The notes beneath the pieces were generated by a model, which was not told the origin of the DNA, made no database searches, and worked only from the letters and a program-made list of their open reading frames with translations. 64,000 nt of DNA from Alphaproteobacteria bacterium (GTDB lineage: Bacteria; Pseudomonadota; Alphaproteobacteria; UBA828): assembly GCA_965221125.1 (NCBI GenBank), contig CBDCRW010000004.1, positions 576,001 through 640,000 of the forward strand, given 5' to 3'. The position numbers and the translations under genes are program-made. Shown here one piece after another: positions 3,212 through 44,958 of the stretch (positions are counted from its first letter, which is position 1; each line of letters begins with the position of its first letter).

Positions 3212-3538
3212 ATGCACAAGGTGGAGGACAGGCAGGTTCCGGCCCGCGCCGCGGCGTCCGCGCTGTCGTTCGACCCGCGCGCCCGAGGCGGCCGAATTTT
3301 TTCGGCCGGGGGCTTGACAAGGGGCGGTGACGCTCCCGGTATAATCAGCCGGTCAGCCGGTCAGCCGGTCAGCCGGTCAGCCGGTCAGCCGGTCAGCCGG
3401 TCAGCCGGTCAGCCGGTCAGCCGGTCAGCCGGTCAGCCGGTCAGCCGGTCAGCCGGTCAGCCCCACCTGGGTCTGCGCTCCGGCCATGATCGCAGCGGCA
3501 TGGCCGCGCTGCCGGAAGGGGCCACCATCCCGGCCTGA
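3212..3538 (+). CDS. Leader ORF of cassette 1, reading through the tandem repeat; out of frame with the 3486 gene
   Basis: Same GLT.......IIS-repeat-PHL...GHD..MAA...PA* architecture as the leaders at 38923 and 45723. The distance 3212 to 3486 is 274 nt (mod 3 = 1). This start is less well supported than in the other cassettes. Confidence 0.4.
   Translation: MHKVEDRQVPARAAASALSFDPRARGGRIFSAGGLTRGGDAPGIISRSAGQPVSRSAGQPVSRSAGQPVSRSAGQPVSRSAGQPHLGLRSGHDRSGMAALPEGATIPA
3314..3345 (+). promoter_or_regulatory. TTGACA-N20-TATAAT element abutting the tandem repeat
   Basis: TTGACA at 3314-3319 and TATAAT at 3340-3345. The same 20-bp spacing occurs at three other loci. Confidence 0.6.
3346..3462 (+). 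repeat. Simple sequence repeat (CAGCCGGT)x14 plus a partial unit
   Basis: Counted directly: 14 perfect units at 3346-3457, then CAGCC. Confidence 0.98.
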
Positions 3539-6194
3539 CGCCTCCCCCTCCGCCGGCAGGGGAAACGCTCGCCGGCTACCTTCTTCTCCCCGAACAGTCT
3601 TCTCCGGCGCGGGCCGCGCGGCGGCGGCGCTGCTGCTGTTGGCGCTGCCCTGCGCGCCGGGCCTGGCCGCCGACGGCCCTGAGGCCGCCCGGGAAACCGC
3701 CTACCCCGAAGGCGCGGTCGCCCGCGTCTTGAGCCTGCCGGCCGATACACATTCGGGCACGCCTTCGGACGCCTGGCGTCTGTCGGGACCGGACGCGGCC
3801 CGGTTCCGGGTCGAGGCGGGGGCGCTCCGCTTCGCCGCCCCGCCGGATTTCGAGAAGCCGGAGGATGCGGACGGCGACAACCGCTACGCGGTGACGCTGC
3901 GGCGCGCCGGTGCGGACGGCACGACGATTGCCGTCACCGTTCGGGTGCAGGACCGCGACGAGCCCGGCCGGGCCGTGTTGCGGCCCTGGCGCCCCGTCGT
4001 CGGCGAGCCGGTGACGGTGAGCCTGACCGACCCTGACCGCGCCGACACCGCCCCGGCTCCGACGGTGCAATGGGAACGCTGGCGGGCTCCCGGAGAGTGG
4101 CAGGCGATCCCGCGGGCGACCGGGCTGCACTACACCCCGGCGGCCGCGGACGCGGGCCGTCCGCTCCGCGCGGTGGTCTCATATGCCGACCGCCACGGGC
4201 CGGACCGGCAGGCGGTGGCCGAGCTGCCCAACCCCGTCGTCGGCCCGATGCTGTCCGCGCTCACGGCCCGCACCGACAGCGCCCGCTCGCGCCCGGCCTC
4301 CGAAGACCCCGCCCCGCGCCCGGCCTTCGATCCCCGCATCCTGCATTACGGGGTGCGGTGCGACGAGCGCGACGTGATGACGGTCTCGTTCTCTGCCCCT
4401 CCGGGCGTCCGGGTCTCGGTCAATGGCATCCAGCCCCGGCCGGGACAGGAGGGCTCGGCGGCGGTCCCGGTCACGCCGACAAGCGACGTGGCGGTGACGG
4501 TCGCGGCACCGGACGGGGCCTGGACGACCTACACGCTCCACTGCATGCTGGCCAAACTGTGGACGATCCGCACCGGGCCCGATCCCGCCCGGCCGCTGGG
4601 GGCGCTGCTCGCACTGACCGGGGGTCCCTGGGCGGCGGTCCTCGACGGGCACGGCGTCTCGCGCGCCCATGTCCGGGCCGAGGGCGGCGGGGCGGGCTTC
4701 TTCCTGCGTCCCTTCGGCTCCGGTCCCGATCTCCGCTGGGCGCATTTCGAGCAGATGCCGGAAGCGGAGCGGAAGACGCCAGGCGAGCCACTGCTCCGCT
4801 GGCGGGTGCTCGACCGGGACCTCACGCCGTTGCGCACCGTCGCCACGGCTCTGCCGCTGACCACGACGGGGCGGCACGACTTCCGGCTGCTGGCGGACGG
4901 CTCGACGCTGCTGATGACCTACGAGCCTTCGGTGCGGGACCTGCGGGGGCTGGGGTTCCCGGACCGCGACGGCAAGCCGTACGGCGCAGGCGTCGAGATG
5001 CAGGATTCTGCGATCCAGCTGCGGGGCCCGGACGGCCGGGTGCGCTGGACCTGGAACTCCTGGGGCCGGCTGCCGCTGGAGGACTGCGCCCAGCACCGGT
5101 TCCCCGGCGACTGGGCCCATGTCAACTCCGTCGAATGGACGGAACAAGGCGTGCTGGCGTCCTTCCGGGGCTGCTCGACGGTGGTCATGATCGACCCCGC
5201 CGCGCCGCCCGGCGAGGAGATCGTCTGGCGGATCGGCGCGAGCAACCTTTCTCGCGACGACTGGCAACGCCGCGGCCTCGGGCCGCCGCCGCTCCGCATC
5301 GTCGGCGACCCCGAGGGTGAGTTCTGCGGCCAGCATGCGGCGCAATTGCTGCCTCCCCCTCCGGGCCTGCGCCTGCCGCGCCTGCTGCTGTTCGACAACG
5401 GCGTGGCCTGCGTCATCGATCCCTGGACCGGCGAACCGCTCGGGCGGACCTCCGGCATCTACAGCCGGGCGGTGGAATACGCGCTCGACCTCGAACACGG
5501 CGAGGCGGTCTTCGTGCGCGACCACGCGCTCGGGGGCGCGCGCGACATGCTCGGCCATGCCGGCGGGCATGTCGAACCCCTGCCGGACGGCGGCTGGCTG
5601 GTGAGCTGGGGCGGCCTCGGCCGCGCGTCGCCGGACCGGGTCGGCGGAAAGCGGCCCTCGGACCTGGTGACGCGGGTCGATCCCGCAACCGGCATGGAGA
5701 GTTTCCGGATTGTGGAGGCAGAAAGTGACGGAGCCCACCTGCGTCCCCTGCCGGTGAGCCCGCTCGCGACGATGCGCGCGCCGGGCCGGCTCGCCGCCGT
5801 GCTGCCCGACGTGCCGCCGGCGGGGCATGGCGGCGCGGGAGAGACTGTCGAGGTCGCGGTGGCCTTCTCGCGCCCGGTGGCGGCGTTCGGGCCCGAGACC
5901 GGCTCCGTCGCGGTCGCCGGCGGCGCGCTGGCGGAGGCCGCACCGCTCGACGGCTTCGGCCGCCCGGCTCATGCCTGGCGGCTGGTGCTGGCGCCCTCGG
6001 GCGACGGGCCGATGGAGCTGCGGTTCCGGGCCGGCGTCGCCTGCGCGGGGTCGGCGCCCGGCATCTGCACGGCGGACGGAGAGCGCCTGCGCGGCGTTCC
6101 GGATGCGTTCGCGATCCCACGAAACATCGACGAAGGCGCCGCCCGGGACCGGGCGGCGGACGCGGGACAGGCAACCCGCAGCAGACAGAATTGA
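3486..6194 (+). CDS. Secreted arylsulfotransferase (ASST)-like protein with an N-terminal cadherin-like domain
   Basis: Signal peptide (AAALLLLALPCAPGLA) and cadherin-like motif PDFEKPEDADGDNRYAVT..DRDEPG. ASST-type motifs: HDFRLL, DWAHVNSVE, LASFR, FCGQHAA, LLFDNG, YSRAVEYALD. Confidence 0.75.
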   Translation: MIAAAWPRCRKGPPSRPDASPSAGRGNARRLPSSPRTVFSGAGRAAAALLLLALPCAPGLAADGPEAARETAYPEGAVARVLSLPADTHSGTPSDAWRLSGPDAARFRVEAGALRFAAPPDFEKPEDADGDNRYAVTLRRAGADGTTIAVTVRVQDRDEPGRAVLRPWRPVVGEPVTVSLTDPDRADTAPAPTVQWERWRAPGEWQAIPRATGLHYTPAAADAGRPLRAVVSYADRHGPDRQAVAELPNPVVGPMLSALTARTDSARSRPASEDPAPRPAFDPRILHYGVRCDERDVMTVSFSAPPGVRVSVNGIQPRPGQEGSAAVPVTPTSDVAVTVAAPDGAWTTYTLHCMLAKLWTIRTGPDPARPLGALLALTGGPWAAVLDGHGVSRAHVRAEGGGAGFFLRPFGSGPDLRWAHFEQMPEAERKTPGEPLLRWRVLDRDLTPLRTVATALPLTTTGRHDFRLLADGSTLLMTYEPSVRDLRGLGFPDRDGKPYGAGVEMQDSAIQLRGPDGRVRWTWNSWGRLPLEDCAQHRFPGDWAHVNSVEWTEQGVLASFRGCSTVVMIDPAAPPGEEIVWRIGASNLSRDDWQRRGLGPPPLRIVGDPEGEFCGQHAAQLLPPPPGLRLPRLLLFDNGVACVIDPWTGEPLGRTSGIYSRAVEYALDLEHGEAVFVRDHALGGARDMLGHAGGHVEPLPDGGWLVSWGGLGRASPDRVGGKRPSDLVTRVDPATGMESFRIVEAESDGAHLRPLPVSPLATMRAPGRLAAVLPDVPPAGHGGAGETVEVAVAFSRPVAAFGPETGSVAVAGGALAEAAPLDGFGRPAHAWRLVLAPSGDGPMELRFRAGVACAGSAPGICTADGERLRGVPDAFAIPRNIDEGAARDRAADAGQATRSRQN

Positions 6195-6207
6195 CTGGAG
6201 TGATGCG

Positions 6208-9200
6208 ATGATGACCGATGGTAACCGGAACGCAGGAACGCCCGTATCGCACGCCGCCGCGGATGGTCAGCGGCATTGCTCCCTTGGCGGCCGGAAATGG
6301 TTCCGGTCGTGGCTTGCCCCACTGGCCGGCGCCCGATCCGGTCTGCGAGCCCTGCTGCCGGTCTTGTTCGCATTCCTGCTGCTGGCCGGATGGACGTCCG
6401 GGGCCGGGGCAGTGACGCTCACCGCAAATCCCAGCTTTGTCTGCCAGGGCCAGACGGTGGACATAACCGTTTCCGGTCTGTCCGCCGGTGCATCGGATGT
6501 CTTTTATCTCGCTGGATCCAGCGGGACCGCGACTTCAGGAACCCACTACAGGATCCTGAACTCGGACGGCACTGAAATCAGTGACTACCAGGACGTAGCG
6601 GTCACCGCGGACGAAAACGGCAGATTTACCCTGCGGGTTCAAAACATCAGTGCAGATGGGAGCGCGGATTTTGAATCAGCCAACTACAATGACTTTGAAA
6701 TCATTTTTCATCCCTCCACACATGCCGACTGCGCCACCACCTCCGACGGCGTCACGGTCTCCCCGACTTCCCTTGCCCTGACCGAGCTCGGCTCGTCCAG
6801 CACCATCGAGAAGACCTACACGGTGGTCCTCGACACCGACCCGGGCGTCGACGTCACGATCACGGCGACCAACGGCGACGCCACCGCGGTCGAGGTGGAC
6901 ACCGACGCGGGCACGTCCGGCAACCAGAACACCCTGACCTTCACCCACGGCAACAGCGGCAACTGGAACACGGCGCAGACGGTGACGGTGCGGGCGCTGA
7001 ACGACCTCGACAGTGCGAACGAGTCCTTCAGCATCACGCACGCGGCGACCGCGGCGAGCGGCCCCTACAACGGCATCACCGTCGCCCCGGTGGCGGTGAC
7101 GACGGCCGACGCCGGCCACGGGGTGGTGGTGTCGAAGTCGAGCCTGTCGGTGGCGGCGAACGACGAGACGGACACCTACACGGTGGTTCTGAAGAGCGCA
7201 CCCGGCGGCACGGTGACGATTACGCCGACCTCGGGCGCGACGACGCGGGCGACGGTCTCGCCGGCCTCGCTCAGCTTCACCAACTCGGACTGGAACACGC
7301 CGAAGACCTTCACGGTGACCGGCAAGGGCCAGGGCTCGACCTCGATCAGCCATGCGGTGAGCACGGGCACGACGGCCTATCCGACGTCCCTGACGATTCC
7401 CGCCGTGTCGGTCACGGTGACGGCGGATTCGCGGCAGGTGCTGGACCTTTCGTTCAGTTCGAACAGCAATAACGAGGGTGTCTCCGCCATCCTGACCGTC
7501 ACCGCCACCGGCGGCTCCGGCAACGTGACGGTTACGGGCGGCACGGCGCTGCTGACCTTTTCGGGCGACGGCATCGCGTCTTCGGACTATTCAGTCACTA
7601 CGGCCTCCATCCTCGTCCTGTTTGGAGGCCCGCCCCCCTCCGCCCCTGTCGGCATCGACCTCGCCAGCGACAGCGTCGACGAGCCGAACGAGACGCTGGT
7701 TGTCGGCCTGCAGAACCTGCCGGCCGGCTACCGGGCCGGCACGACCGCCTCGGTCACGATCATCGACCGGAACCCCACCACGGTGACGCTGGCGGGCGGC
7801 GGCACGGTGACGGAGGACGGCGCGAACTCCGCGGACGTCACGGTGACGCTGAGCCGCAACCTGGTGGCCGGGGAGACGGTGACCGTGCCGCTGGCGATCA
7901 CGGGCGCCGGCATCGCGGCGGGCGACTACACGATCGCGCCGGCGCCGGGATCGAGCCTCAACAGGGGCGTGACGCTGAACACCTCGAACCCGCACAGCGC
8001 GGCGCAGCCGGCGGTGGTGTTCACGGGCCACGGCACGAACACGGTGCAGGTGGCGACGCTCCGGGTGACGGCGGTGCAGGACTCCACGGACGAGGGTGCG
8101 TCGGAGGCGCTCGCCGTGGGCTTCGGCAGCGGCAACCGGGCGGTCATGAGCAATCTCGACCGGGCGTCGGGCACCGGCACGACCGGCACCACGACGGCGG
8201 GCACGGCGACGGTGACGATCACCGACGACGACACGTCGGCGGTTCCGGAGGTCTCGATGGAGCTTCAGACCGGGGAGACCTCGAATCGCAACACCGCCGG
8301 GCAGCTGGAGCTTGTCGAGAGCGGGGGCGTGGACGGGGCGGTGTTCAACCTCAGCGCCGACAGCGTGCTGGTCTCGACCCTGACGGTGTGCCTGCGCCTG
8401 ACCGAGACCGGCGGCGACCTTGTGGCCGCGGCCGCGGAGGGCATCAGGACGGCCACGCTGACCAGCAGCGGCAACACCAACGGCGCCGGCATTTACACGC
8501 TCACCTGGGCGGGCGACACGGATGACGAGCGGAACAGCGTGGTGACGGCGACGCTGTTGGCGCCGGAGACGGCGGGCTGTTCGGCCGCGAACGGGACCTA
8601 CACGGTGGCGTCGGCGATGGCGTCGGACGCGGTGTTCATCGAGGACGACGACGCCACGACGGTCGAGCTCACGAGTTCCGACACGAGCATGGCGGAGGGC
8701 GACGCCTCGCAGACGGCGACGCTGACGTTCACGCTCGGGCGCCGGCTCCATGCGGGCGAGGTCCTGGTCGTGCCGTTCACGCTGGCGACGACGACGGGCG
8801 CGAGATTGCCCGGCCATTCGACGCCGGACTTCGCGGTGACGGCGGCGGGCACGGGGGTGACGATCGCGAGGCCCAACACGGCGACCCCGTCGGTGACCTT
8901 CACCGGCCACGGCACCGACACGGTGCGGACCGCGACGGTGACGCTGACGCCGGTGGCGAACCGGGACGACGGCGACACGGCGCGCGAGGAGATCGCGGCG
9001 ACGCTGGCGACCGACAGCGTGCTGGGTTCGACCGCGGGCACCGACACGACGGTCGGCGGCGGCGCCATGCGCCACGCGACGAACTTCGCGGTCGACCTGA
9101 CGCTGGAGGACGACGACGCGCCGGCCGGCGCCACCGAGCTGACGCTCACCCTGTCCTCGGCCTCGGCCCCGGAGGGGAGCGGCGGCACGCGCGACGTCAC

Positions 9201-12200
9201 CGTGACGGTCGCCAAGCCGGCGGGGTCGGCGCGGGTCAGCTACCGGCTGTGCTTCTCCGGCACCGCGACCCTGGACGAGGACGGCGAGCGGGCGCCGGGG
9301 GAGGACTACCGGGTCATCAAGTTCAACGGCGGTCAACAGACGGTGTTCCACGGCGGTCACATGGCGCTGTTCCACACGACGGGGGGCGCGCGCTGCGTCG
9401 GCGGCGGTTCCGTCACCTTCCTTGCGGGCGTGGACAGCCACGCCTGGCGGGTCCGGGTGTTCGGCGACGCCGTCAAGGAGAACGACGAGACGGTGGTGGT
9501 GACGCTCTCCGAGAGCGGGACCCCGCTGCCGGACGGCTGGTCGATATCCTCCGCGGGCAACCCCGCGACCCACACGATCGCCAACGACGACGCGCCGCAC
9601 GTCACGCTGCACGCCGTGGACCCGGTCGCGGTGGAGGGCAGCAGCACCGACACCGCCGCCATCGAGGTGCGCCTGAGCCACGCGCTCGAGGCCGGCGAGA
9701 CCCTGACGGTCAATCTGGACACGAACACCTTTATCTGGGGGAACTCCAGCCTGGACGGATCGCCGGCGGGCGTCGCCTACTCCAGACCGTCGGGCAGAGA
9801 GCACCGGCTGGTGTTCACCGGGCCGAGCGCCCCCGACCGGGCCCGGATCGTCCTTGAAGCGAGCGCGAACAGCGTGAGCGGCGACGGCCTCCAGAGCCGC
9901 GACCACTATGCGGAACTGACCAGCGTGACGGGTTACTCCGGCGCCACCCTGGACAGCCGGCAGGCGAGCCGGCAGTTCCTGCAGGTCATCGACAGCGCGT
10001 CCGCCGCGGGCCACGGCGTGACCCTGTCGGTGCATTCGTGGCCCGACGGCTCGATACGCGAGATCGGGGAGGGCGGCAAGGCGGTGCTCAAGGTCTCCGC
10101 CGCCGGCGGCAGGCCGGTATCGGTGACCGTCGCCGTGCAGCCGGTCACCGCGGACTTCGCCGACCTCGGCCGCGCGAGCGCGGGCGGCCACGGCCCCGGC
10201 GGCCCGGCGAACGCGACGGGCTGGGTCGCCTACAAGGAACGCGACGGGCACCAGGGCCTCGACCTCTACACGGTGAGCATCTTCGAGCAGCCCGCGCCCT
10301 CCGTGTACATGCAGATCCCCATCGTCGACGACGGCCAGGCCGAAGGGCCGGAGACCTTCCGTGCGTTCATCTACCGGACGCCGCCCGGCTACAAGGCGGG
10401 CGGCGGCCTCGCGGGCACGCGGGTGTCGACCGTCGAGTTCACCATCCCGGCAAGCGACGGCGGCCTGCCCCGGAACGCGGCCGCGGTCGAGGTCCCCGAC
10501 ACGCAGGTGGCGAACCTGAAGGTGACGAGGGTCGATGCGAGCACCGCCTCGGCGCGCTGGGACGCGGTCGCGCACGCCACCGGCTACGAGGTGGAGTGGG
10601 ACGCGCTCGACGGCAACGGGCGGTCGATCGCCGCCGGCCTCCACGCCGGCGTGACCGCCACGACGCAGACGATCGAACACCAGGCGCCGGGGGCGGCGTC
10701 GCTCAGGGTGACGGTGGCGCCGGAACATGTCGACGGCAACGGCGACACGCAGGTGCTGTCCGGCCTCGCGGCCACGGCGGTGCTCGACCTGTCGACGCCG
10801 CAGTCCGCGCAGGCGGATTCGATCCAGGCGGGCGCGGCGTCCTGCGACCTGGCGTCGGTGAAGGCGGACGTGAACCGCTATATCGGGGAGACGCAGTACG
10901 GCACGGCGCATGTGGCGCGCTGGAAGAAGGCGCTGGCCGGTCTGAACCGCGAGACCGGCGGCATGACCGCGGCCGGGGCGCGGCAGATGAAGGCGAAGTA
11001 TTCGCCGGGCCGCTGGCAGCCGGTGGTGGACGGCCTCGACTGCCTGGAGAAGGCCGCAACGCCGCAGGCGGAGACGCCGGCGGCGGTCCCCGAACTGAGC
11101 CTCGCGGCCGGTCCCGCCGTGGACGAGGGCGGCAACGCGGCGTTCACCGTCCATGCCGACCCGGCGCCGGCGGCGGAGCTGACCGTGGCCTTCACCGTCG
11201 CCCAGAGCGGCGAGTATCTGGACGCGCCCGGCGCGGGCAGCCGTCAGGTGACCCTGGCGGCGGGCGCCGCGAGCGCCACGCTCGCCATCGCCACGGCGGA
11301 CGACGGCGTGGACGAGCCCGACGGCTCGGTCGGCGTCACCCTCGATGCCGGCGCGGGCTACACCCTGGCGGCCGGCAAGGCGGGCGGCACGGTCGCGGTG
11401 CGCGACAACGACACGCCGGCGGTCAGCATCGCCGCCGGGAGCGGGGTGACGGAGGGAGCCCCGGCCGCGTTCACCCTCACGGCGAACCCGGCGCCGCATG
11501 CCGACCTGACGGTGACGCTGGCGGTGACCCAGAGCGGGGACTTCGCGGCTTCCGGCCAGACCGGCGCGCGGGAGGTCACGATCCCGACCGGGGGCAGCGC
11601 GTCCTTCGAGGTCGCGACGGTGAACGACAGCGCGGACGAGCCGGACGGCTCGGTCACGGCAACCGTCGCCGCCGGAACCGGCTACGCGGTGGCGGCCTCG
11701 CCGGACGACACGGCCTCGGTGGCGGTGGCGGACGACGACGCGGCGCCGGGGGCGCCCGCACTCGCCATCGGCGATGTGAGGGCCAATGAGGGCGACGGGT
11801 TCATGTGGTTCACGGTCACGCTGAGCCCGGCCTCGGACCGTCCGGTATCGGTCGATTACCATACCCGGGAGTCGAACCCGGTGTCGGCGCGCAAGGACAG
11901 CGACTTTCTCCAGGTCGATTTCGGGGGGGTCACGTTCAGTCCGGGCGAGACGAGCAAGCGGTTCTGGGTCTACCTGTTCGACGACAACCACGACGAGGAT
12001 CCGGAGACCTTCGAGGTCGCGCTGTCGCGCCCGACGGGTGGGGCGGTCATCGCCGACGGGGTGGCGGTGGGCACCATCGTCAACGACGACCCGATGCCGG
12101 CGGCGTGGCTGGCGCGCTTCGGGCGCACGGTGGCCGAGCAGGCGCTCGACGGCATCGCAAACCGCATCGCGGCGCCGCGCGAGGCCGGCGCCCGGGGCAC

Positions 12201-13671
12201 GCTCGCCGGGCAGGCGCTGAACCTCGGATCAAGTCCGAGGGCAGGGCCTGGGACGGGTTCGGGGTCTGACGGCGCGGCCGGTGGGCCAGGCGCGGCCAAC
12301 GATAACGCCGCAATGGGCAGCTTTTCCGCCGCCGGCGGCTTCGGAACGCCGGCCGGCCGCTTCGGCACGGTCGGCTTCGGCCACGACGACCATGGCTTCG
12401 GCCAGGGCTTCGCGCAATCCCGCACCATGACGGGGCTGGAGGCGCTGCTGGGATCGAGCTTCACGGCGACGGGGGAGACCGACGCCACCGGCGGCAGCCT
12501 CGCCTTCTGGGGCCGGGCGGCGCAGTCGAGCTTCGACGGCAGGGAAGGCGCCTTCTCGCTCGACGGCGAGGCGACCACCGCCATGCTGGGCGCGGACTAT
12601 GCGCGCGGCAGGTGGCTGGTCGGGCTCGCGCTGATGCAGAGTTCCGGCGAGGGCGGCTATGCCGATACCGGCGCCGATGCGCAGCCCTGTCCCGACGACG
12701 CGGAGGAGGATCTCTGCGACGGCGCGGTGCACGCGGGCGACGGCAAGGTGGAGGCGTCGCTGACGGCCGCCGTCCCCTACGCGGCCATCCAGGCGTCCGA
12801 ACGGCTCAGGCTCTGGGGCGCGGCGGGCCATGGCACGGGCGAGGTGACGCTCAAGCCGGAGACGGACGGATCGCTCAGCTCCGACATCTCCTGGACCATG
12901 GCGGCGGCCGGCGCGCGCGGCGACCTGCTGGCGCCGCCGGGTAGCAGCGGTCCGGCGCTGGCGTTGACCGCGGACGGCCTCTGGGCGCGGACCTCGTCCG
13001 AGAAGACGCACGAGCTTGCGGCGTCGGACTCCGACGTGACCCGGCTCAGGCTCGGTCTGGAGGGCAGCTACCGCATCGCCCTGGAGGAAGGCGGCCACAT
13101 CACGCCCAAGGCGGAGGTGGGCGCGCGCCATGACGGCGGCGACGCCGAGACCGGCTTCGGGGTGGAAGTCGGCGGCGGGCTGGTCTGGAGCGATCCGGGC
13201 CTGGGGCTCAGCCTCGACCTCTCGGGCCGCACGCTGGTCTCCCACAGCTCGGACGACCTGGAGGACCGGGGCTTCGCGGTCTCGCTCGCCTTCGATCCGA
13301 ACCCGGCGACGAAGCGGGGGCCGTCCTTCAGCCTGCGCCAGGACTGGGGCGGCTCGGCCGAGGGCGGGCTCGATGCGCTGTTCCGCGCCGACCCGCTCGC
13401 CGACCGCGCGGGGAGCGCCGAGCCGGAGAGCCGCTGGCAGGCCGAAGCGGCATACGGCTTCCCGGCCTTCTCCGGACGCTTCACCGGCAGCCCGCATGTG
13501 GGGCTGGGGCTCGCCACGGGCGCGCGCGACTACACGCTCGGCTGGCGGCTCTCGCCGGCGGCCAATGCCAACGCGCCCGAGGTGTCCTTCGGCGTGAAGG
13601 CGACGCGCCGGGAGAACGAGGGGGTCGAGCCGGAGCATACGGTCGGGTTCGAGGTCAACGCGCGCTGGTGA
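6208..13671 (+). CDS. Giant Calx-beta/Ig-like repeat surface protein with a C-terminal autotransporter-like beta-barrel (adhesin 1, about 2487 aa)
   Basis: GGAG SD at 6197-6200, then ATG at 6208 and a signal peptide. Many V.EG...DD..DE..ET...TI.DDD repeats and an FN3-like segment. The C-terminal MPAAWLARFGRTVAEQ...barrel ends in NARW. Confidence 0.85.
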   Translation: MMTDGNRNAGTPVSHAAADGQRHCSLGGRKWFRSWLAPLAGARSGLRALLPVLFAFLLLAGWTSGAGAVTLTANPSFVCQGQTVDITVSGLSAGASDVFYLAGSSGTATSGTHYRILNSDGTEISDYQDVAVTADENGRFTLRVQNISADGSADFESANYNDFEIIFHPSTHADCATTSDGVTVSPTSLALTELGSSSTIEKTYTVVLDTDPGVDVTITATNGDATAVEVDTDAGTSGNQNTLTFTHGNSGNWNTAQTVTVRALNDLDSANESFSITHAATAASGPYNGITVAPVAVTTADAGHGVVVSKSSLSVAANDETDTYTVVLKSAPGGTVTITPTSGATTRATVSPASLSFTNSDWNTPKTFTVTGKGQGSTSISHAVSTGTTAYPTSLTIPAVSVTVTADSRQVLDLSFSSNSNNEGVSAILTVTATGGSGNVTVTGGTALLTFSGDGIASSDYSVTTASILVLFGGPPPSAPVGIDLASDSVDEPNETLVVGLQNLPAGYRAGTTASVTIIDRNPTTVTLAGGGTVTEDGANSADVTVTLSRNLVAGETVTVPLAITGAGIAAGDYTIAPAPGSSLNRGVTLNTSNPHSAAQPAVVFTGHGTNTVQVATLRVTAVQDSTDEGASEALAVGFGSGNRAVMSNLDRASGTGTTGTTTAGTATVTITDDDTSAVPEVSMELQTGETSNRNTAGQLELVESGGVDGAVFNLSADSVLVSTLTVCLRLTETGGDLVAAAAEGIRTATLTSSGNTNGAGIYTLTWAGDTDDERNSVVTATLLAPETAGCSAANGTYTVASAMASDAVFIEDDDATTVELTSSDTSMAEGDASQTATLTFTLGRRLHAGEVLVVPFTLATTTGARLPGHSTPDFAVTAAGTGVTIARPNTATPSVTFTGHGTDTVRTATVTLTPVANRDDGDTAREEIAATLATDSVLGSTAGTDTTVGGGAMRHATNFAVDLTLEDDDAPAGATELTLTLSSASAPEGSGGTRDVTVTVAKPAGSARVSYRLCFSGTATLDEDGERAPGEDYRVIKFNGGQQTVFHGGHMALFHTTGGARCVGGGSVTFLAGVDSHAWRVRVFGDAVKENDETVVVTLSESGTPLPDGWSISSAGNPATHTIANDDAPHVTLHAVDPVAVEGSSTDTAAIEVRLSHALEAGETLTVNLDTNTFIWGNSSLDGSPAGVAYSRPSGREHRLVFTGPSAPDRARIVLEASANSVSGDGLQSRDHYAELTSVTGYSGATLDSRQASRQFLQVIDSASAAGHGVTLSVHSWPDGSIREIGEGGKAVLKVSAAGGRPVSVTVAVQPVTADFADLGRASAGGHGPGGPANATGWVAYKERDGHQGLDLYTVSIFEQPAPSVYMQIPIVDDGQAEGPETFRAFIYRTPPGYKAGGGLAGTRVSTVEFTIPASDGGLPRNAAAVEVPDTQVANLKVTRVDASTASARWDAVAHATGYEVEWDALDGNGRSIAAGLHAGVTATTQTIEHQAPGAASLRVTVAPEHVDGNGDTQVLSGLAATAVLDLSTPQSAQADSIQAGAASCDLASVKADVNRYIGETQYGTAHVARWKKALAGLNRETGGMTAAGARQMKAKYSPGRWQPVVDGLDCLEKAATPQAETPAAVPELSLAAGPAVDEGGNAAFTVHADPAPAAELTVAFTVAQSGEYLDAPGAGSRQVTLAAGAASATLAIATADDGVDEPDGSVGVTLDAGAGYTLAAGKAGGTVAVRDNDTPAVSIAAGSGVTEGAPAAFTLTANPAPHADLTVTLAVTQSGDFAASGQTGAREVTIPTGGSASFEVATVNDSADEPDGSVTATVAAGTGYAVAASPDDTASVAVADDDAAPGAPALAIGDVRANEGDGFMWFTVTLSPASDRPVSVDYHTRESNPVSARKDSDFLQVDFGGVTFSPGETSKRFWVYLFDDNHDEDPETFEVALSRPTGGAVIADGVAVGTIVNDDPMPAAWLARFGRTVAEQALDGIANRIAAPREAGARGTLAGQALNLGSSPRAGPGTGSGSDGAAGGPGAANDNAAMGSFSAAGGFGTPAGRFGTVGFGHDDHGFGQGFAQSRTMTGLEALLGSSFTATGETDATGGSLAFWGRAAQSSFDGREGAFSLDGEATTAMLGADYARGRWLVGLALMQSSGEGGYADTGADAQPCPDDAEEDLCDGAVHAGDGKVEASLTAAVPYAAIQASERLRLWGAAGHGTGEVTLKPETDGSLSSDISWTMAAAGARGDLLAPPGSSGPALALTADGLWARTSSEKTHELAASDSDVTRLRLGLEGSYRIALEEGGHITPKAEVGARHDGGDAETGFGVEVGGGLVWSDPGLGLSLDLSGRTLVSHSSDDLEDRGFAVSLAFDPNPATKRGPSFSLRQDWGGSAEGGLDALFRADPLADRAGSAEPESRWQAEAAYGFPAFSGRFTGSPHVGLGLATGARDYTLGWRLSPAANANAPEVSFGVKATRRENEGVEPEHTVGFEVNARW

Positions 13672-13764
13672 GGCATGGCATGGGCCGATGACCGCGCCCG
13701 GGAGCGGAGACCGTCCGATGCGGCCTCCGCTCCGGCGGCGACGCCCGATCCCGGCGGCTGAGCC

Positions 13765-14471
13765 GTGGCGCGTCGGGTCGGCGGATGGGACGCGGTGCGG
13801 GCCTGGCGCTTCATCCGCGCGAGCAAGGCGTACCGCGCGGCCTGGGCGAAGCGTCTCCCGATGCCCGGTCTGCCCGAGCGGGCGCCGTTCCCGGTGCGGC
13901 TCCAGACGTCGGTCGATCTCGCCGCCATGGCCTGGGGCATGGCGGCCTTTGAAGATCCTTATGCGGAACGGCCGCTGGCGCCCTTCTGGACGCATGCCGG
14001 GGTGATCGACGGCCGGGTGACGCGCGATGCGCCGCCGCTGGTCCGGCTCGCGGCCGAGGGCGGGGCGACGCTTGACGGGCTCCGCCTCGCCGACGGCGCG
14101 CTGATGCTCCGGATCGAGCGGCCGGGCGTGTCGGTTTCGGTCCGCCTGCCGCGGGGCGCGGCGTTTCCCGACGATGGCGGGCTGCGCCTCGTCCTGGAAC
14201 GGGAGGTGGCCGCCATCGAGGACATCTGGGCGGGGTTCCCGGCCCCTCGATCGGGGCGGGCACGGGGGACGGGGACGGTGAGCTTCTGCTGGCGCTGGAA
14301 AGCGAGGCGGAGGGGCTCACGCAGAAGGACTATGCGCTGCGGCTCTGGACGCCGGAGCGGGTCGCGGAGGAATACTACACCGGCAGCTGGATGCATGAGC
14401 GCGTCAAGCGGCGCTTCGCCAGGGCAAGGGCGGTCCTGAAGCGGTATCGGGACATGGCGACGGGCAAGTAG
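13765..14471 (+). CDS. FseA-like (DUF6499 plus DUF2285-type) transcriptional activator; C-terminal domain in the -1 frame
   Basis: The N-terminal part carries AWRFIRAS.AYRAAW and AWGMAAFEDP motifs. The -1 frame after 14268 encodes ELLLALESEAEGLTQKDYALRLW...GSWMHERVKRR...YRDMATGK*. The gene lies upstream of an RDF-like HTH gene. Confidence 0.7.
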
Positions 14472-14912
14472 TCCGCAGGACTCGGCGCGCCGGCTGCCGG
14501 TAAGCGCCGCGTTTTCGTTTCCGATTGAAATCGACGCGGAATCCCCGGTTCGGATCGACGAGACCGCCGGTGACGGTCACGCCGGGTGCATTTCATCCTT
14601 GTTTGTCCGAACCCGTCGAACGTCACCGTCGCGCTCGCCCGGCCGCCGCGGACGGTCGCGACGGGCGCTGGGCATCCACCGCCGATTCTCACTGTAGCCA
14701 CCGCTTCCCGCGCGGTCGCCGGCCTGGCCGAGTAACGGAGCCGTGCGGGCCGAACCGCGCCTGCCGATATCCCCCGCGCCGGACCGCCATGCGTCTCCAT
14801 GGAGGGGCAATCCGGTCCCGGCCCGGCCGGGGACCCGCCGCGAGCACATGGACGCGAATTCGCAGTCCCGGCGCCGATCGGCGGCGATCGGCGCCCGCTG
14901 GCGGTCAAACTG

Positions 14913-14945
14913 AGGGGCGTTTTTCTGCACCCGAAAATCGCCCCT
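14913..14945. promoter_or_regulatory. 13-bp imperfect inverted repeat upstream of the RDF-like/tra operon; candidate activator-binding site
   Basis: AGGGGCGTTTTTC-tgcaccc-GAAAATCGCCCCT (12/13 match), about 90 bp upstream of the 15034 ATG. Confidence 0.45.
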
Positions 14946-15033
14946 ACCCCTCCCCGCCCTTCTTCGCTCCGATGCCCGCACATGCGCCCCGAGCCCCGGG
15001 GCCGGTCGGGACAGGCAGCAACGGGAGACGGCA

Positions 15034-15261
15034 ATGACGGACGGGGAGACGATCTATCTGAACACGCGACAGGCGGCGGCGCATCTGGGGCTGTCGACGC
15101 GCACGCTGGACCGCTACCGGGTGTCGGGCGAAGGGCCGGTGTTCCTGCGCTTCGGCGGCCGGGTGCGCTATCTGCGCGAGGACCTCGACGCCTGGGCGAA
15201 GACGCGCCGGCGCAAGTCCACCTCCGACGACGGCACCGCGCTCGCCGGAGCGGGCCGGTGA
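15034..15261 (+). CDS. AlpA/excisionase-like (RdfS-like) HTH DNA-binding protein
   Basis: YLNTRQAAAHLGLSTRTLDRYRVSGEGPVFLRFGGRVRYLREDLDAW; GGGAG SD. Confidence 0.88.
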   Translation: MTDGETIYLNTRQAAAHLGLSTRTLDRYRVSGEGPVFLRFGGRVRYLREDLDAWAKTRRRKSTSDDGTALAGAGR

Positions 15262-38922: not shown

Positions 38923-39246
38923 ATGGGTTTTGTGCGAGAGGCGTGGGCGGCGGTTGCGGCTGCCGCGGGCGAGGTCCGGGATCGGGGCTTGACAAGTGTC
39001 CTTGAGGCTCCCGTTATAATCAGCCGGATCGCCGGATCGCCGGATCGCCGGATCGCCGGATCGCCGGATCGCCGGATCGCCGGATCGCCGGATCGCCGGA
39101 TCGCCGGATCGCCGGATCGCCGGATCGCCGGATCGCCGGATCGCCGGATCGCCGGATCGCCCCACCTGCGTGCGCGTTCCGGCCATGATCGGGGCCGCAT
39201 GGCGGCGGCTCCTCCGTCGGACACCCTCTCCATCCTCCCCGCCTGA
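38923..39246 (+). CDS. Leader ORF of cassette 2 (MGFVREAW...), out of frame with adhesin 2
   Basis: GGAGGGGGG SD; reads through the repeat. The distance 38923 to 39185 is 262 nt (mod 3 = 1). Confidence 0.65.
   Translation: MGFVREAWAAVAAAAGEVRDRGLTSVLEAPVIISRIAGSPDRRIAGSPDRRIAGSPDRRIAGSPDRRIAGSPDRRIAGSPHLRARSGHDRGRMAAAPPSDTLSILPA
38989..39020 (+). promoter_or_regulatory. TTGACA-N20-TATAAT element
   Basis: TTGACA at 38989-38994 and TATAAT at 39015-39020. Confidence 0.6.
39023..39161 (+). repeat. Simple sequence repeat (GCCGGATC)x17
   Basis: 17 perfect units at 39023-39158, plus GCC. Confidence 0.98.
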
Positions 39247-42200
39247 GTCTTCCGGTCTCGCCGCTGCGGGCGGTCTGCGCCGGGCCGCCGCCGCCGGCCT
39301 GCTCGGCCTGCCGCTGGCGTTCGGTCTCGCCGGCGCGGCGCAGGCCTACGAGGGCATCACGATCTCGGCGCCCCCGGACGCGCCAGAGGGACATTCGGGC
39401 CTGACGAACCAGACCTTCGAGGTGCGCCTTACCGGACCGGTCTCGGGCGACGTCAACTACAAGGTCTGCTTTTCCGGCACGGCCACGTACGCGGACGACT
39501 ACAATCCCACGCTCGGTGGGACCCAGCAGTCCTCCAATTGCGTCAACGGCCGCATCGGCAGGGGGCGGACGACTCCTGACAGCGCCATCGGCATCGCCGT
39601 GGTCGGCGACGAGATTTCGGAAAGCGGAAGATGGCGCGGCGAGTACGGCGAGACGGTGACCGCGCACCTGACCCTTGTCGGCGCGCAGCCGTGGGACCTT
39701 GACGGCCGCCGCGCCCACACGGTCACCCACACCATCCTGAACGACGACGTGGCCGTGAGTTTCCGGCAGGCCAACTACGAAGGCCGCGAAGGGAAGCGGC
39801 TCCGCATCCAGGTCGACCTGGTGGAAAGCACCCAAGGATACCCATGGAACGTCACGGTCCCGTTCACGTATACCCGGGGAACGGCGTCGTCCGGCGACTA
39901 CGACGCCTCGCGGACCTCGCTGACCTTCCGGCGCGGCGAGATCACGCAGGACCTGTACGTCGACCTGACCGACGACAGCAGCTTCGACAGTGGCGAGACG
40001 TTCACCATCGATTTGGACACGGCCAGCTTTCCGACCGGCATGTATGACAGCGGCATTGCGCGAGCACGGGTGACCATCAAGGACAACGACTACAGCATCA
40101 GCGCGAGTTCCAGCTCCCATGCAGTCCGGGAGGACGCGGGGGGCGTCAGCATCCCGGTGACCATCAGCCCCGCGCAGGAGCGCACGGTGGGCGTGCGCGT
40201 CAGTTTCAGCGACATTAACGCTTCCGGCGGCCAGGACTACATCGCGAAACACCACAGCTTTCCGGACGACATCCTGACCTTCCATCCCGGGGAGACCGCG
40301 AAGTGGATCTTCGTCCCGGTCGTCAACGACGGCGCCTTCGAGCAAAACGAGCTGTTCAAGGTGACGCTGACACAGACGGTCGGAGCGACGGATCCGGAAA
40401 CCGTGGATATCATCATCAAGGATCATCGGCCAGGCGACGGCGAATACACCAGCAAGCTGATCCTCGAACGGACCAGCCGGGACACCGTCTCGGAGGGGCA
40501 GAGCGCGACGTTCAGGCTCACGATGCATCCGGCTGTGCAGGAAGGCTCCACCGTCGCGGTGCTGCTGTCGCAGTCGGCCGACGACGGCGTGCGGGCGAAC
40601 TGGATCGCCGGTGCGCCGGAGACGCACGCGCACTACAAGACCGTCAGTTTCGCCCGAGGGGAAAGCGTGAAGACCCTGACGGTGCCGATCCGGAGCGACA
40701 GGCGCGACACCAACGGCACGCTCACCGTGGCGGCGATGGCGCCGGGCGACCACCCCGCCAGCACCGGCCCCTACACCGCGCGCGGGCAGAAAGTGGTCGC
40801 GAAGGTGCGCATCCTGGACACCACGGCGGACGGCAACCCCCACAGCAGCCCCCAGCAGACGGCCGCGGTCGAGGTCCCCTCCACGGCGGTGACCAACCTG
40901 CAGGTGACGGCGGTTGACGGGAACACGGCGAAGGCGACGTGGGACGCGGTTCCGCACGCCACCGGCTACGAGGTGGAGTGGGACGCGCTCGACGGCAACG
41001 GGCAGTCGATCGCCGCCGGCCTCCACGCCGGCGTGACCGCCACGACGCAGACGATCGAACACCAGGCGCCGGGGGCGGCGTCGCTCAGGGTGACGGTGGC
41101 GCCGGAACATGTCGACGGCAACGGCGACACGCAGGTGCTCGCCGGCCTCGCGGCCACGGCGGTACTCGACCTGTCGACGCCGCAGTCCGCGCAGGCGGAT
41201 TCTCTCCAGGCGGGCGCGGCGTCCTGCGATCTCGGGACGCTGCGCGCGGACATCGCGGGCTATATCGGCGAGCAGCCGGAGACGAGCGACCATGTGAAGC
41301 GCTGGAAGCGGGTGCTGGCGGCGTTCGACGGCAAGGCCGGGGGCATGACCGCCGCCGAGGCCGGGACGTATGCCGGCAAGGGCTGGACGCGCTGGGACCC
41401 GGTGGTGGTGGCGCTCGACTGCCTGGAGAAGGCCGCGACGCCGCAGGCGGAGACGCCGGCGGCGGTCCCCGAGCTCAGCCTGTCGGCCGGTCCCGCCGTG
41501 GACGAGGGCGGCAGTGCGGTCTTCACCGTCCATGCCGATCCGGCGCCGGCGGCGGAGCTCACGGTCGCCTTCACCGTCGCCCAGAGCGGCGAGTACCTGG
41601 ACGCGCCCGGCGCGGGCAGCCGGACGGTGACGCTTGCGGCGGGCGCCGCGAGCGCCACGCTCGCCATCGCCACGGCCGACGACGGGGCCGATGAGGCCGA
41701 CGGCTCGGTCGGCGTCACCCTCGACGCCGGCGCGGGCTACACCCTGGCGGCCGGCAAGGCGGCCGCGAAGGTCGCGGTGCGCGACAACGACACGCCGGTC
41801 GTGAGCGTGGCGGCGGGCACTGGCGTTACGGAGGGCGATCCGGCGACGTTCACGGTGACGGCGACGCCCGCGCCCGCCGCGCCGCTCACGGTGGCGCTGA
41901 CGGTGGGCCAGAGCGGGGACTTCGCGGCTGCCGGCGAGACCGGCGCCAGGGAGGTGACCGTTCCGACCGGGGGCAGTGCAGCCTTCGAGGTCGCGACGGC
42001 GGACGACAGCGCGGACGAGCCGGACGGATCGGTGGGCGCGGCCCTGCAGTCCGGAACGGGCTATGCGGTGGCGGATCCGCCGGCAGACGCGGCCACGGTC
42101 GCGGTCTCGGACGACGATGTCGCGGCGACGGGCGTGCCGACGCTCTCGGTGAACGACGTCGAGGTGAAGGAGGGTCCGTACCGGCGGGTCGAGTTCACGG

Positions 42201-44071
42201 TGACGCTCAGCAAGGCGTTGGAGAAGGGCGCCTGGTTCTACTACCGGGTGCGGGAGTCGAGCCCGGTGTCGGCGAAGCGGGGCGTGGACTTTTCGGCCTC
42301 TACCGGAAAGAAATTTGCGTCCATAAGGCCGGGCGCGACCGAGCACCGGATCATGGCGGCCCTGGTGATCGACGACAGCCACGACGAGGACCCGGAGACC
42401 TTCGAGATCGTACTCTCGGACGCGAACGGCGTGGCGATCGCGGACGGGGTGGGCGTGGCGACGATCGTCAACGACGACCCGATGCCGGCGGCGTGGCTCG
42501 CGCGGTTCGGTCGCACGGTGGCGGAGCAGGCGCTCGACGGGATTGCCGGGCGCATCGCGGCGCCGCGCGCGGCGGGCATGCAGGGCGCGATTGCCGGGCA
42601 GGCGCTGAGCTTCAATCCTGGATCGGGGTCCCCCGGATCGCAGACCGGCGCGGCGAACGACAACGCGGCCAGTGTCGGCTTCTCCGGCACCGGGCCGCTG
42701 GCGCTGTCCGGCCTCGACGCTCCCGCCGGGCGCTTCGGCCCTGCCGGCCTCGGGGCTGGCTTCGGCCATGGCGTCCACGGTTTCGGCCAGGGCTTCGCGC
42801 AATCCCGTACCATGACGGGGCTGGAGGCGCTGCTGGGCTCGAGCTTCACCGCGACGGGAGAGACCGACGCCACCGGCGGCAGCCTCGCCTTCTGGGGCCT
42901 CGCGGCGCAGTCGAGCTTCGACGGCCGCGAGGGGACGTTCTCGCTCGACGGCGAGACGACGACGGCCATGCTGGGCGCGGACTATGCGCGGGGCAGGTGG
43001 CTGGTCGGGCTCGCGCTGATGCAGAGTTCCGGCGAGGGTGGCTACGCCGACAGGGCTGCCAGCCCCCGCCCCGCTTTGCAGACCTGCCCGGAGGATGCGG
43101 ACGAGAGTCTGTGCAACGGCGCGGTGCGGGAGGGCGACGGCGACGTGGAGGCGTCTCTGACGGCCGCCGTCCCGTACGCGGCCATCCAGTCGTCCGAACG
43201 TCTCAGGCTCTGGGGCGCGGCGGGCTACGGCACCGGCGAGGTGACGCTGAAGCCCGCCATGGGCGGCTCGCTCAAGTCGGACCTCTCCTGGACGATGGCG
43301 GCGGCGGGCGCGCGGAGCGATCTTCTCCAGCCTCCGAAGGAAGGGAGCGGTCCCACGCTCGCGCTGACCGCGGACGCCTTGTGGGCGCGGACCTCGTCGG
43401 AGAAGACGCGAGAGCTGGCGGCGTCGGACTCCGACGTGACCCGGCTGCGGTTGGGTCTGGAAGGCAGCTATCGCATCGCCACCGAGGGCGGCGGCCGGAT
43501 CGTGCCCAGGGTGGAGATCGGCGCGCGCCATGACGGCGGCGACGCGGAGACCGGCTTCGGCGTCGAGCTCGGCGGCGGCATCGCCTGGACCGATCCGGCG
43601 CTCGGGCTCTCGCTCGACCTCTCGGGCCGGACGCTGATCGCGCACGGCAACGACGATCTGGAAGACCGGGGCTTCGCGGCCTCGCTCGCCTTCGATCCGA
43701 ACCCGGGCACCGAGCGCGGCCTGTCGCTGACGCTCCGCCAGCGGATCGGCGGCCGGGCCGAGGGCGGGCTCGACGCGCTGTTCGCGACCGACCCGCTGGC
43801 CGACCGCACCGGTATCGGCGAGGTGGAGAGCCGATGGCAGGCGGAAGCCGCGTACGGCCTCCCGGCCCTCGCGGGGCGCTTCACCGGCAGCCCGCATGTG
43901 GGGCTCGGGCTCGCCACGGGCGCGCGCGACTACACGCTCGGCTGGCGGCTCTCGCCGGCGGCCAACGCCAACGCGCCCGATCTCTCCTTCGGCGTGAGGG
44001 CGACGCGCCGGGAGAGCGATACGGCGGCGCCGGAACACATCGCCGGGTTCGAGCTTCGCGCCCGCTGGTAA
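39185..44071 (+). CDS. Calx-beta repeat autotransporter-like surface protein (adhesin 2, about 1628 aa)
   Basis: Signal peptide ending AAQA, Calx-beta repeats and an FN3-like block shared with adhesin 1. The conserved barrel ends in RARW. Confidence 0.85.
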   Translation: MIGAAWRRLLRRTPSPSSPPESSGLAAAGGLRRAAAAGLLGLPLAFGLAGAAQAYEGITISAPPDAPEGHSGLTNQTFEVRLTGPVSGDVNYKVCFSGTATYADDYNPTLGGTQQSSNCVNGRIGRGRTTPDSAIGIAVVGDEISESGRWRGEYGETVTAHLTLVGAQPWDLDGRRAHTVTHTILNDDVAVSFRQANYEGREGKRLRIQVDLVESTQGYPWNVTVPFTYTRGTASSGDYDASRTSLTFRRGEITQDLYVDLTDDSSFDSGETFTIDLDTASFPTGMYDSGIARARVTIKDNDYSISASSSSHAVREDAGGVSIPVTISPAQERTVGVRVSFSDINASGGQDYIAKHHSFPDDILTFHPGETAKWIFVPVVNDGAFEQNELFKVTLTQTVGATDPETVDIIIKDHRPGDGEYTSKLILERTSRDTVSEGQSATFRLTMHPAVQEGSTVAVLLSQSADDGVRANWIAGAPETHAHYKTVSFARGESVKTLTVPIRSDRRDTNGTLTVAAMAPGDHPASTGPYTARGQKVVAKVRILDTTADGNPHSSPQQTAAVEVPSTAVTNLQVTAVDGNTAKATWDAVPHATGYEVEWDALDGNGQSIAAGLHAGVTATTQTIEHQAPGAASLRVTVAPEHVDGNGDTQVLAGLAATAVLDLSTPQSAQADSLQAGAASCDLGTLRADIAGYIGEQPETSDHVKRWKRVLAAFDGKAGGMTAAEAGTYAGKGWTRWDPVVVALDCLEKAATPQAETPAAVPELSLSAGPAVDEGGSAVFTVHADPAPAAELTVAFTVAQSGEYLDAPGAGSRTVTLAAGAASATLAIATADDGADEADGSVGVTLDAGAGYTLAAGKAAAKVAVRDNDTPVVSVAAGTGVTEGDPATFTVTATPAPAAPLTVALTVGQSGDFAAAGETGAREVTVPTGGSAAFEVATADDSADEPDGSVGAALQSGTGYAVADPPADAATVAVSDDDVAATGVPTLSVNDVEVKEGPYRRVEFTVTLSKALEKGAWFYYRVRESSPVSAKRGVDFSASTGKKFASIRPGATEHRIMAALVIDDSHDEDPETFEIVLSDANGVAIADGVGVATIVNDDPMPAAWLARFGRTVAEQALDGIAGRIAAPRAAGMQGAIAGQALSFNPGSGSPGSQTGAANDNAASVGFSGTGPLALSGLDAPAGRFGPAGLGAGFGHGVHGFGQGFAQSRTMTGLEALLGSSFTATGETDATGGSLAFWGLAAQSSFDGREGTFSLDGETTTAMLGADYARGRWLVGLALMQSSGEGGYADRAASPRPALQTCPEDADESLCNGAVREGDGDVEASLTAAVPYAAIQSSERLRLWGAAGYGTGEVTLKPAMGGSLKSDLSWTMAAAGARSDLLQPPKEGSGPTLALTADALWARTSSEKTRELAASDSDVTRLRLGLEGSYRIATEGGGRIVPRVEIGARHDGGDAETGFGVELGGGIAWTDPALGLSLDLSGRTLIAHGNDDLEDRGFAASLAFDPNPGTERGLSLTLRQRIGGRAEGGLDALFATDPLADRTGIGEVESRWQAEAAYGLPALAGRFTGSPHVGLGLATGARDYTLGWRLSPAANANAPDLSFGVRATRRESDTAAPEHIAGFELRARW

Positions 44072-44790: not shown

Positions 44791-44958
44791 TGCGCGGGCC
44801 GCGCCGCCGCGCGCCGATTGCCGAAATGCCGGGCGTTCGTTTGCCGTCGGCACGGAAACCCGGGCTCGGCCGCCGCGATTCCGCCTCGCGCGCGCCGTAT
44901 CGGGGGCGCCATGCGGCGCGCGGAAGACGCCGATGAGAGGCTGCAGAGGGGCCGAAGG

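Follow-up and report, generated by a model that had tools for sequence, protein, structure and literature searches.

We analysed a stretch of 64,000 nucleotides (nt) from an alphaproteobacterial genome of 4.58 Mb in seven contigs (positions 576001-640000 of contig C4, hereafter the window), which contains three copies (A, B and C) of a putative activator gene that is read in two frames. The copies begin at 13765, 44087 and 60502, as given in an original prediction made from the letters alone, are ~705 nt long and share ~80% mutual identity. Each uses frame 0 for ~161-168 codons and the −1 frame thereafter. The frame-0 open reading frame (ORF) of 223-224 amino acids (aa) carries RAWRFIRAS and, in frame, AWGMAAFEDP, and the −1 frame encodes, from the linker on, ~68 residues with the C-terminal end KRYRDMATGK. 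Conceptual fusion of the two frames gives a protein of 234-235 aa (235 aa in copy A). The only insertions and deletions (indels) among the three copies are of 6 nt and 3 nt, and the frame offset is therefore retained in each of them.

Copy A occupies 13765-14471 on the + strand. Its frame-0 part (13765-14247) encodes a DUF6499-like N-terminal domain with RAWRFIRAS, the in-frame AWGMAAFEDP, a middle domain and the start of a linker, and frame 0 remains open until a TGA at 14437-14439. The −1-frame part (14247-14471) encodes an acidic linker and a DUF2285/RovC-type DNA-binding domain of the helix-turn-helix kind, and ends at a TAG (14469-14471). The slip site that we favour, C.CCU, lies at 14244-14247, with CCU as the frame-0 codon 14245-14247, and is followed on the same strand by a G-rich tract (14253-14274) that is conserved beyond coding needs and contains ACGGGGGA (14262-14269), the alternative slip site CGG.GGG.A. 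Copies B (44087-44790) and C (60502-61205), also on the + strand, have C.CCU at 44560-44563 and 60975-60978, ACGGGGGA at 44578-44585 and 60993-61000, and −1-frame stops at 44788-44790 (TAA) and 61203-61205 (TAG). C.CCU is thus found 18 nt 5' of ACGGGGGA and in phase. A fourth full copy with the same layout (L002), elsewhere on the contig, and a truncated copy at 51610 had been overlooked in the original prediction. The truncated copy (51610-52284) matches the others over ~165 nt only and then continues as a different 224-aa ORF without a Pfam match; the break has the appearance of a junction made by recombination or insertion. Truncated and more distant paralogues (38-41% identity) of the N-terminal part were seen in the same genome (L007, L008 and L009, on contigs C7, C2 and C3), and an IS21 IstB-like frame follows the break in L007. 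A short similar block (containing GCCGAAATGCCGGGCGTTCGTTTGCC and, further on, GGCACGGAAA) was also seen just 3' of the stop of each copy (44790-44850, 61205-61270 and 14472-14560); copies B and C share it, and in A it is conserved in part.

The frame-0 ORFs had no match in a Pfam search, and PF20109 (DUF6499) did not match the window copies at E ≤ 1; where FseA-family proteins have an AWEFLRRN-like helix, these copies have RAWRFIRAS. The −1-frame products of the window copies scored 16.2, 23.8 and 22.1 bits against PF10074 (DUF2285/RovC_DNA-bd), for which the cut-off is 26.4 bits. Whole-genome scans with PF10074 and PF20109 returned sub-threshold matches or none; the controls were without a match as well, and blank whole-genome scans are therefore uninformative. 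Two relatives with both parts in one frame, L054 and L060, reached 53 and 50 bits with PF10074, above the cut-off, and 18.8 and 23.8 bits, respectively, with PF20109 (cut-off 23.8). Furthermore, AWAFLRRN is present in L060, and a hidden Markov model of the N-terminal part built from window-like copies matched L060 and L054 at ~1e-43. A natural in-frame relative of 234 aa, P0032, is 72% (N-terminal part) and 68% (C-terminal part) identical to copy A. Its AlphaFold model, from a 39-row alignment, had a mean pLDDT (predicted local distance difference test) of 86.9 and a pTM (predicted template modelling score) of 0.79, with low confidence only in the linker (~residues 141-170). The sole significant match to this fold in the PDB was RovC (6xz5; E = 9.3e-10, TM 0.63/0.68, 229 columns, 19% sequence identity). 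In the model, which is of this 68-72% identical relative and not of a window fusion, the DUF6499 helix and DUF2285 are predicted to pack together in one RovC-like polypeptide. Together with the excisionase-like gene beside copy A (described below), the fold of P0032 and the PF10074 scores of the in-frame relatives support the originally predicted FseA/DUF2285-like identity, that is, that the window genes encode FseA/RovC-like activators.

Synonymous changes had been reported to move from frame 0 to the −1 frame along the three copies, and larger samples agreed. In 12 close copies from five genomes, the third codon position of frame 0 diverged most within the first ~480 nt of the gene, and that of the −1 frame from ~nt 500 on. 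When substitutions were counted by Fitch parsimony on a tree of 36 sequences, the synonymous to non-synonymous counts 5' of the junction were 53:90 in frame 0 versus 17:113 in the −1 frame, and those in the DUF2285 part were 136:312 in the −1 frame versus 88:383 in frame 0. These ratios indicate that both parts are translated, each in its own frame. The sequencing data examined were Logan contigs, which can hide rare variants; contigs from three independent studies span 14138-14312, 14101-14312 and 14176-14317 with 0 gaps, no indel near 14262 and a run of five Gs (G5), which is therefore not an error of this assembly. As judged by these sequence comparisons, the −1 frame change in the activator genes is conserved and under selection, and here the original prediction stands: the contigs read G5 rather than G6, the two parts lie in different frames in most homologues, and a DUF2285 match, below threshold, exists for the −1 frame.

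To define how widely the layout is spread, we gathered 108 loci, drawing on genomes of the same family, on a public collection sampled at one genome per species, and on metagenomes, the scan of which contributed only 12 loci. They comprise 69 unique loci with both parts, 26 with the N-terminal part only and 13 that were exact junction duplicates or lacked an N-part match. A −1 shift is needed in 60 of the 69 unique loci and a +1 shift in four, and five are in frame. L020, L050, L072 and L093 were treated as degenerate (extra shifts or truncated N parts). Two near-identical loci of one genome (L019 and L028, G034) need a +1 shift in the same linker, where a G6 run is read GGG.GGG.C, and their frame-0 stop lies 10 nt into the DUF2285 region. 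Among 120 protein clusters related to the N-terminal part, 97 have a frame-0 nonsense tail, three have the C domain cleanly in frame, and the rest are truncated (18) or mixed (two); no precomputed Pfam domain is listed for any of the 120. A search with P0032 against 1.84 billion representatives gave 320 matches, and the best 150 of these included 121 with the N part only, 12 with the C part only and four that were continuous and full-length. The in-frame variants P0032, P0036, P0072, P0068 and P0117 may be real alleles or assembly errors and were not used for placing the site. Named hosts are mostly metagenome-assembled genomes labelled Alphaproteobacteria, Rhodospirillales or Defluviicoccus, with a few Gammaproteobacteria, Acidobacteriota and Binatia, and the stretch itself is present in runs labelled sponge metagenome.

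The closest precedent is FseA (Msi172-Msi171) of the Mesorhizobium element ICEMlSymR7A, in which tRNA-Phe slips +1 on UUU_C by the WGL motif at the end of DUF6499 with an efficiency of 4-13% (PMC4755241; PMC10359603). Three features of FseA recur here: the domain order DUF6499, middle domain and DUF2285; a place in a conjugative element upstream of an excisionase-type gene with an inverted repeat before its promoter (here copy A); and a frame change that is needed for the full-length activator while most translation yields a product without DNA binding, as we infer for the window genes (PMC10359603; PMC4755241). In contrast to FseA, the +1 region is in frame here, as the original prediction had recognized from AWGMAAFEDP: this motif and the sequence that follows it lie in one frame in all copies, and the +1 site (UUU_C after G-rich WGL codons) was not found. 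The change here is instead −1 and comes ~100 codons later, in the linker before DUF2285, so that the unshifted product would keep two of the three domains, including the middle domain. The transfer genes differ as well, being F-type, and so do the Pfam scores of the window copies, which are sub-threshold. The +1 site is conserved in ~61% of 4709 curated FseA homologues, so ~39% also lack it and the site is not strictly defining (PMC10359603). That the switch 'moved' here from the +1 site, as first suggested, is something we can only infer.

We then asked where in the linker the frame changes. The original prediction had placed the switch at ACGGGGGA, a point that three copies alone cannot fix; the octamer is not rare, with eight matches in the window versus 4.58 expected and at least eight in 5 of 100 shuffles. 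In 36 of the −1 loci we found CCG-GYC-CCT, with CCT as a frame-0 codon, and none of the 36 departs from CCCT; these junction statistics exclude four of the 40 loci in which CCCT was matched, because there it was out of phase. An unbiased scan of all 60 −1 loci for any in-phase quadruplet X.XXY where both frames are open found C.CCU in 42, A.AAA in 10 (A6-7 runs) and C.CCC in six (C5-7 runs). The remaining two loci have only G.GGG (L068) or none (L070); a slippery quadruplet is thus present in the frame overlap of 58 of the 60 loci. In L066, L098, L100, L104 and L107, C.CCU is the sole in-phase slippery quadruplet in the allowed window. CCT is rare in these genes (20 of 832 Pro codons elsewhere), and an in-phase C.CCT would occur by chance within 12 codons with a probability of 0.015. 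Several loci speak against a switch at the G run itself. The junctions of L012, L044, L017, L095, L107 and L108 lack a G5 run and keep the −1 layout; of the 33 unique C.CCU-type junctions, five keep it with no G run of at least five. In L098 and L100 a frame-0 TGA comes right after CCC-CCU-CCU-CGG, before any G run. In addition, substitutions in the interval from C.CCU to ACGGGGGA already fit the −1 frame (synonymous to non-synonymous 19:22 versus 10:38 in frame 0; Fisher p = 0.013, which is indicative only because both frames count the same changes).

Half of the C-run loci (three of six) carry C.CCC.CCG or C.CCC.CCC heptamers in phase, and −1 slippage by the ribosome fits these heptamers as well as the in-phase quadruplets. 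A tree was built from 64 of the 69 loci, leaving out L020, L050, L070, L072 and L075 (N-part match of fewer than 100 positions). The A-run class formed one clade (support 99/95), as did the C-run class (100/99) and the two in-frame gammaproteobacterial loci, and the +1 pair was sister to a C.CCU locus. Loci of the C.CCU type occurred on both sides of the midpoint root, and for this reason the C.CCU arrangement looks ancestral in the sequence tree, with the A-run, C-run and other motifs as later replacements.

The region from −6 to +26 around CCU is conserved beyond the needs of either frame, which implies that some nucleic-acid element is present. Two hairpins were considered and rejected. In one, which is 10 bp long in copies B and C and has CCUC as part of its loop, 77.3% of cells pair, with covariation not above that of shuffles (106-117 of 500 as high); the other, in the ELLLALESEAEGL codons downstream, appeared in single-sequence folds of copies A and B and was absent from the consensus fold of 35 sequences. 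Rfam gave only a chance microRNA match over 13700-15100 (25.5 bits against a threshold of 92 bits).

Taken together, these results suggest the following explanation. Frame 0 encodes the DUF6499-like and middle domains and the −1 frame the DUF2285 DNA-binding domain. Most ribosomes would keep frame 0 and stop ~57 codons later, giving a protein without the DNA-binding domain, and a minority would slip back one base in the disordered linker, giving the activator of 234-235 aa. The likeliest slip would be that of tRNA-Pro from the rare CCU to the overlapping CCC at C.CCU, with UCG as the next codon, and the strongly conserved G-rich tract that begins 6 nt downstream of C.CCU is a candidate stimulator. 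In the case of copy A, the inverted repeat ahead of the excisionase-like gene would be the binding site of the full-length protein, which would turn on excision and transfer. Like the +1 frameshift in Mesorhizobium FseA, the slip would hold this output at a low level. The full-length activator is probably made only via a rare programmed slip. The explanation as a whole, a two-frame FseA/RovC-type activator with a −1 ribosomal slip at C.CCU, a G-rich stimulator and control of excision and transfer, is tentative: it may well be right, and is slightly more apt to fail in one of its parts.

A number of observations weigh against this explanation, and several of them favour a slip in the G run, as originally predicted. 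The window copies' own Pfam scores are under threshold, and the single RNA run gave one contig, covering only 14361-14472 at a depth of 2.7, which is uninformative on expression or slippage. Constraint on the nucleotides of the G tract could bias the substitution counts. C.CCU does not conform to the canonical heptamer X.XXY.YYZ, the covariation of the CCUC hairpin was no better than chance as noted, fold z-scores were ordinary (−2.8 to +1.0), and a canonical G-quadruplex motif is found in only 11 of 33 junctions, so that this idea is kept as speculation. The original version has tRNA-Gly slip −1 on the ribosome at CGG.GGG.A (14263-14269), with the upstream GGGG, ~10-13 nt 5', as a Shine-Dalgarno-like stimulator as in dnaX; such an element at this spacing is known to stimulate −1 shifts. 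In its favour, G.GGG is in phase at both G runs of the window copies, the phase of the G5 run does not vary among the window copies and most close relatives (its first G is at codon position 2), and a run of at least five Gs is retained in 28 of the 33 C.CCU-type junctions. The in-frame variant P0072 joins exactly at the G5 run (GRVRG-DGD), and in copies A and B the downstream hairpin begins ~6 nt after the following codon. Moreover, the linkers of in-frame relatives (APRSAR, GPRPGA and RPPRHGAR) are nearer to the frame-0 reading up to the G run, PRPGR, than to the −1 reading PSAGAG, which favours a slip further downstream than C.CCU. Against it stand the six loci without a G5 run, the frame-0 stops of L098 and L100, and the substitutions upstream of the run, all described above; the P-site codon CGG would also be unable to re-pair after a −1 shift, and the downstream hairpin is missing from the consensus fold. 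We therefore regard a slip in the G run as unlikely and, on balance, not by much, place the slip at C.CCU ahead of the G5 run.

Other explanations dispense with ribosomal slippage. RNA polymerase might add one base within the homopolymer (G5 here, A6-7 or C5-7 in sister clades), leaving a minority of mRNAs in frame, or slipped-strand mispairing of the DNA might alter the run length in a few cells and turn the activator heritably on. The three homopolymer types at the same linker in related clades would suit both. Transcriptional slippage would yield a product identical to that of the −1 slip, and a GC-rich hairpin can form just 5' of the G5 run, a position from which a hairpin reportedly promotes hybrid realignment. 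For phase variation one can cite rare in-frame alleles of near-identical genes (P0032 versus P0033, with the junction SGRG-TGEDGD, and P0072 versus P0068) and L054, which is in frame with a G6 run. However, both fail for L012, L044, L107, L068 and L070, in which there is no homopolymer of at least five, and runs of 5-7, above all of G, are short for efficient polymerase slippage, just as runs of this length are short for phase variation. Run phase is also constant within each class, which transcriptional slippage does not require and which shared ancestry could also explain, and we consider this mechanism improbable. Phase variation is more improbable still: a clean in-frame reading occurs in only three of the 120 clusters, a number that assembly error could account for, and the contigs of all three studies read G5, with the proviso that contigs drop rare variants. 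Two separate proteins, a frame-0 DUF6499 and middle-domain protein and a stand-alone QseM-like DUF2285 protein starting at ACG or CTG in the −1 frame, would agree with the C-only ORFs called in some relatives (12 of the best 150), which start at GTG, ATG or TTG from Val-Trp codons with GAGGA before them, and with QseM, which shows that DUF2285-only proteins exist (PMC10359603). As originally stated, the three window copies lack ATG, GTG and TTG ahead of the −1 domain; altogether 25 of the 60 −1 loci have no such start in the C frame, and canonical starts, where present, are by-products of Val-Trp codons, at a position that is C (giving CTG) in 24 of 34 unique junction sequences. For these reasons the C part is unlikely to have a start of its own. 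The ACG start that the original prediction had offered as an alternative is rejected, since this codon is ACG in only 18 of the 34 unique sequences and GCG or TCG in the others. GAGGA is spaced by only ~3 nt, and the model of P0032 (pTM 0.79) suggests that both parts belong to one RovC-like fold, so that we give two separate proteins very little credence. A sequencing artefact or decaying pseudogenes might be suspected from truncated and insertion sequence-interrupted relatives in the same genome (51610, L006-L009) and from the extra shifts in L020, L072 and L093, but three independent data sets give the same sequence, the same shift is needed in 60 of 69 loci across deep branches, and purifying selection acts on both parts, each in its own frame; this is scarcely conceivable.

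RovC of Yersinia pseudotuberculosis is the solved distant relative of FseA (PMC10359603), and its whole-protein fold (6xz5) is matched by the predicted model of P0032. It differs in that one uninterrupted frame encodes it, in its role as activator of a type VI secretion cluster and in the absence of helix alpha-1 (PMC10359603). QseM shares the DUF2285 domain with the −1-frame part; it is described as stand-alone, with its own start and a negative surface (PMC10359603), whereas the −1-frame part has no start in 25 of the 60 loci.

At −1 sites such as A.AAA.AAG of dnaX and those of IS3-family transposases, the shift joins two functional parts, and a short and a long product are both made. The A-run and C-run sister clades resemble these sites in their A6-7 runs or C.CCC.CCG/C heptamers; the window copies differ in having C.CCU and then a G-rich tract, in which the stimulator is only a candidate. 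No description of C.CCU plus a G-rich tract as a motif was found in the literature searched, and none of a −1 or linker frameshift in that on FseA-, RovC- and DUF2285-type proteins; the passages on 1 PRF (programmed ribosomal frameshifting) in the available part of PMC10359603 all concern +1, and its tables of 4709 homologues might hold cases. It is conceivable, if rather doubtful, that a whole branch of FseA/RovC proteins acquired recoding a second time and independently, as a −1 shift in the linker at an ancestral C.CCU stimulated by the G-rich tract (which might form an RNA G-quadruplex), and that homopolymers (A6-7 and C5-7) took the place of this site at least twice and a +1 shift at G6 once. 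On this reading the unshifted product, which retains the DUF6499 and middle domains, could serve as a built-in antiactivator by titrating the full-length form.

That a frameshift can limit how a mobile element is transferred has its textbook example in FseA. If a second site, in the opposite direction and with a changing slippery motif, is real, selection would act on low output itself and not on one mechanism, and the linker before the DNA-binding domain would be an alternative place for limiting output. C.CCU with the G-rich tract, if confirmed, would be a non-canonical addition to the bacterial −1 sites. There is also a consequence for annotation. Gene callers' versions of these genes are hypothetical proteins of 211-279 aa with a nonsense tail, and with such tails and no Pfam domain in the 120 clusters, DUF6499-DUF2285 regulators, and regulated conjugative elements with them, are undercounted in the mostly uncultured, sponge-associated Alphaproteobacteria.

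The neighbourhood of copy A is that of a mobile element. Directly downstream lies an excisionase/RdfS-like HTH_17 gene (15034-15261, + strand), followed on the same strand by F-type conjugation genes (15620-38213) for TraL, TraE, TrbI/TraB-like, TraV, TraC, TraU, TraN, TraH, TraG, a TrwB-type coupling protein and a TrwC relaxase; copy A thus adjoins both an excisionase-like gene and a complete F-type transfer operon. An excisionase-like gene is found at most 1.3 kb downstream in 29 of the 69 related loci, whatever the frame type, and copies B and C have none within 1.3 kb. A candidate box for activator binding is an inverted repeat at 14913-14945 (13-nt arms, 7-nt spacer), which precedes the excisionase-like gene by ~90 nt. 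The repeat is of the type GGGNCG-TTTTC, 7-nt spacer, GAAAA-CGNCCC, and across 14 aligned loci its arms vary and their complementarity is kept, as expected of a binding box whose activators co-evolve. A conserved TTCTTCGCTTCGATG-like block comes after the repeat, and by their sequence the two together are a candidate activator box and promoter.

Large adhesin-like genes surround the activator copies. Giant ORFs of 1633-2614 aa with Calx-beta and LapA-type adhesin domains lie at 5827-13671, 39170-44071, 45904-51594 and 54094-60486, and each FseA-like copy, including the truncated one, is directly 3' of one of them. The 3' ends of these ORFs are alike, and the activator therefore seems to have been duplicated together with the end of the adhesin gene. 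Copies B and C might act on the adhesin gene that follows them instead of controlling transfer. An ORF of 902 aa (3486-6194) that encodes an arylsulfotransferase (ASST) domain precedes the first of the giant adhesin-like genes.

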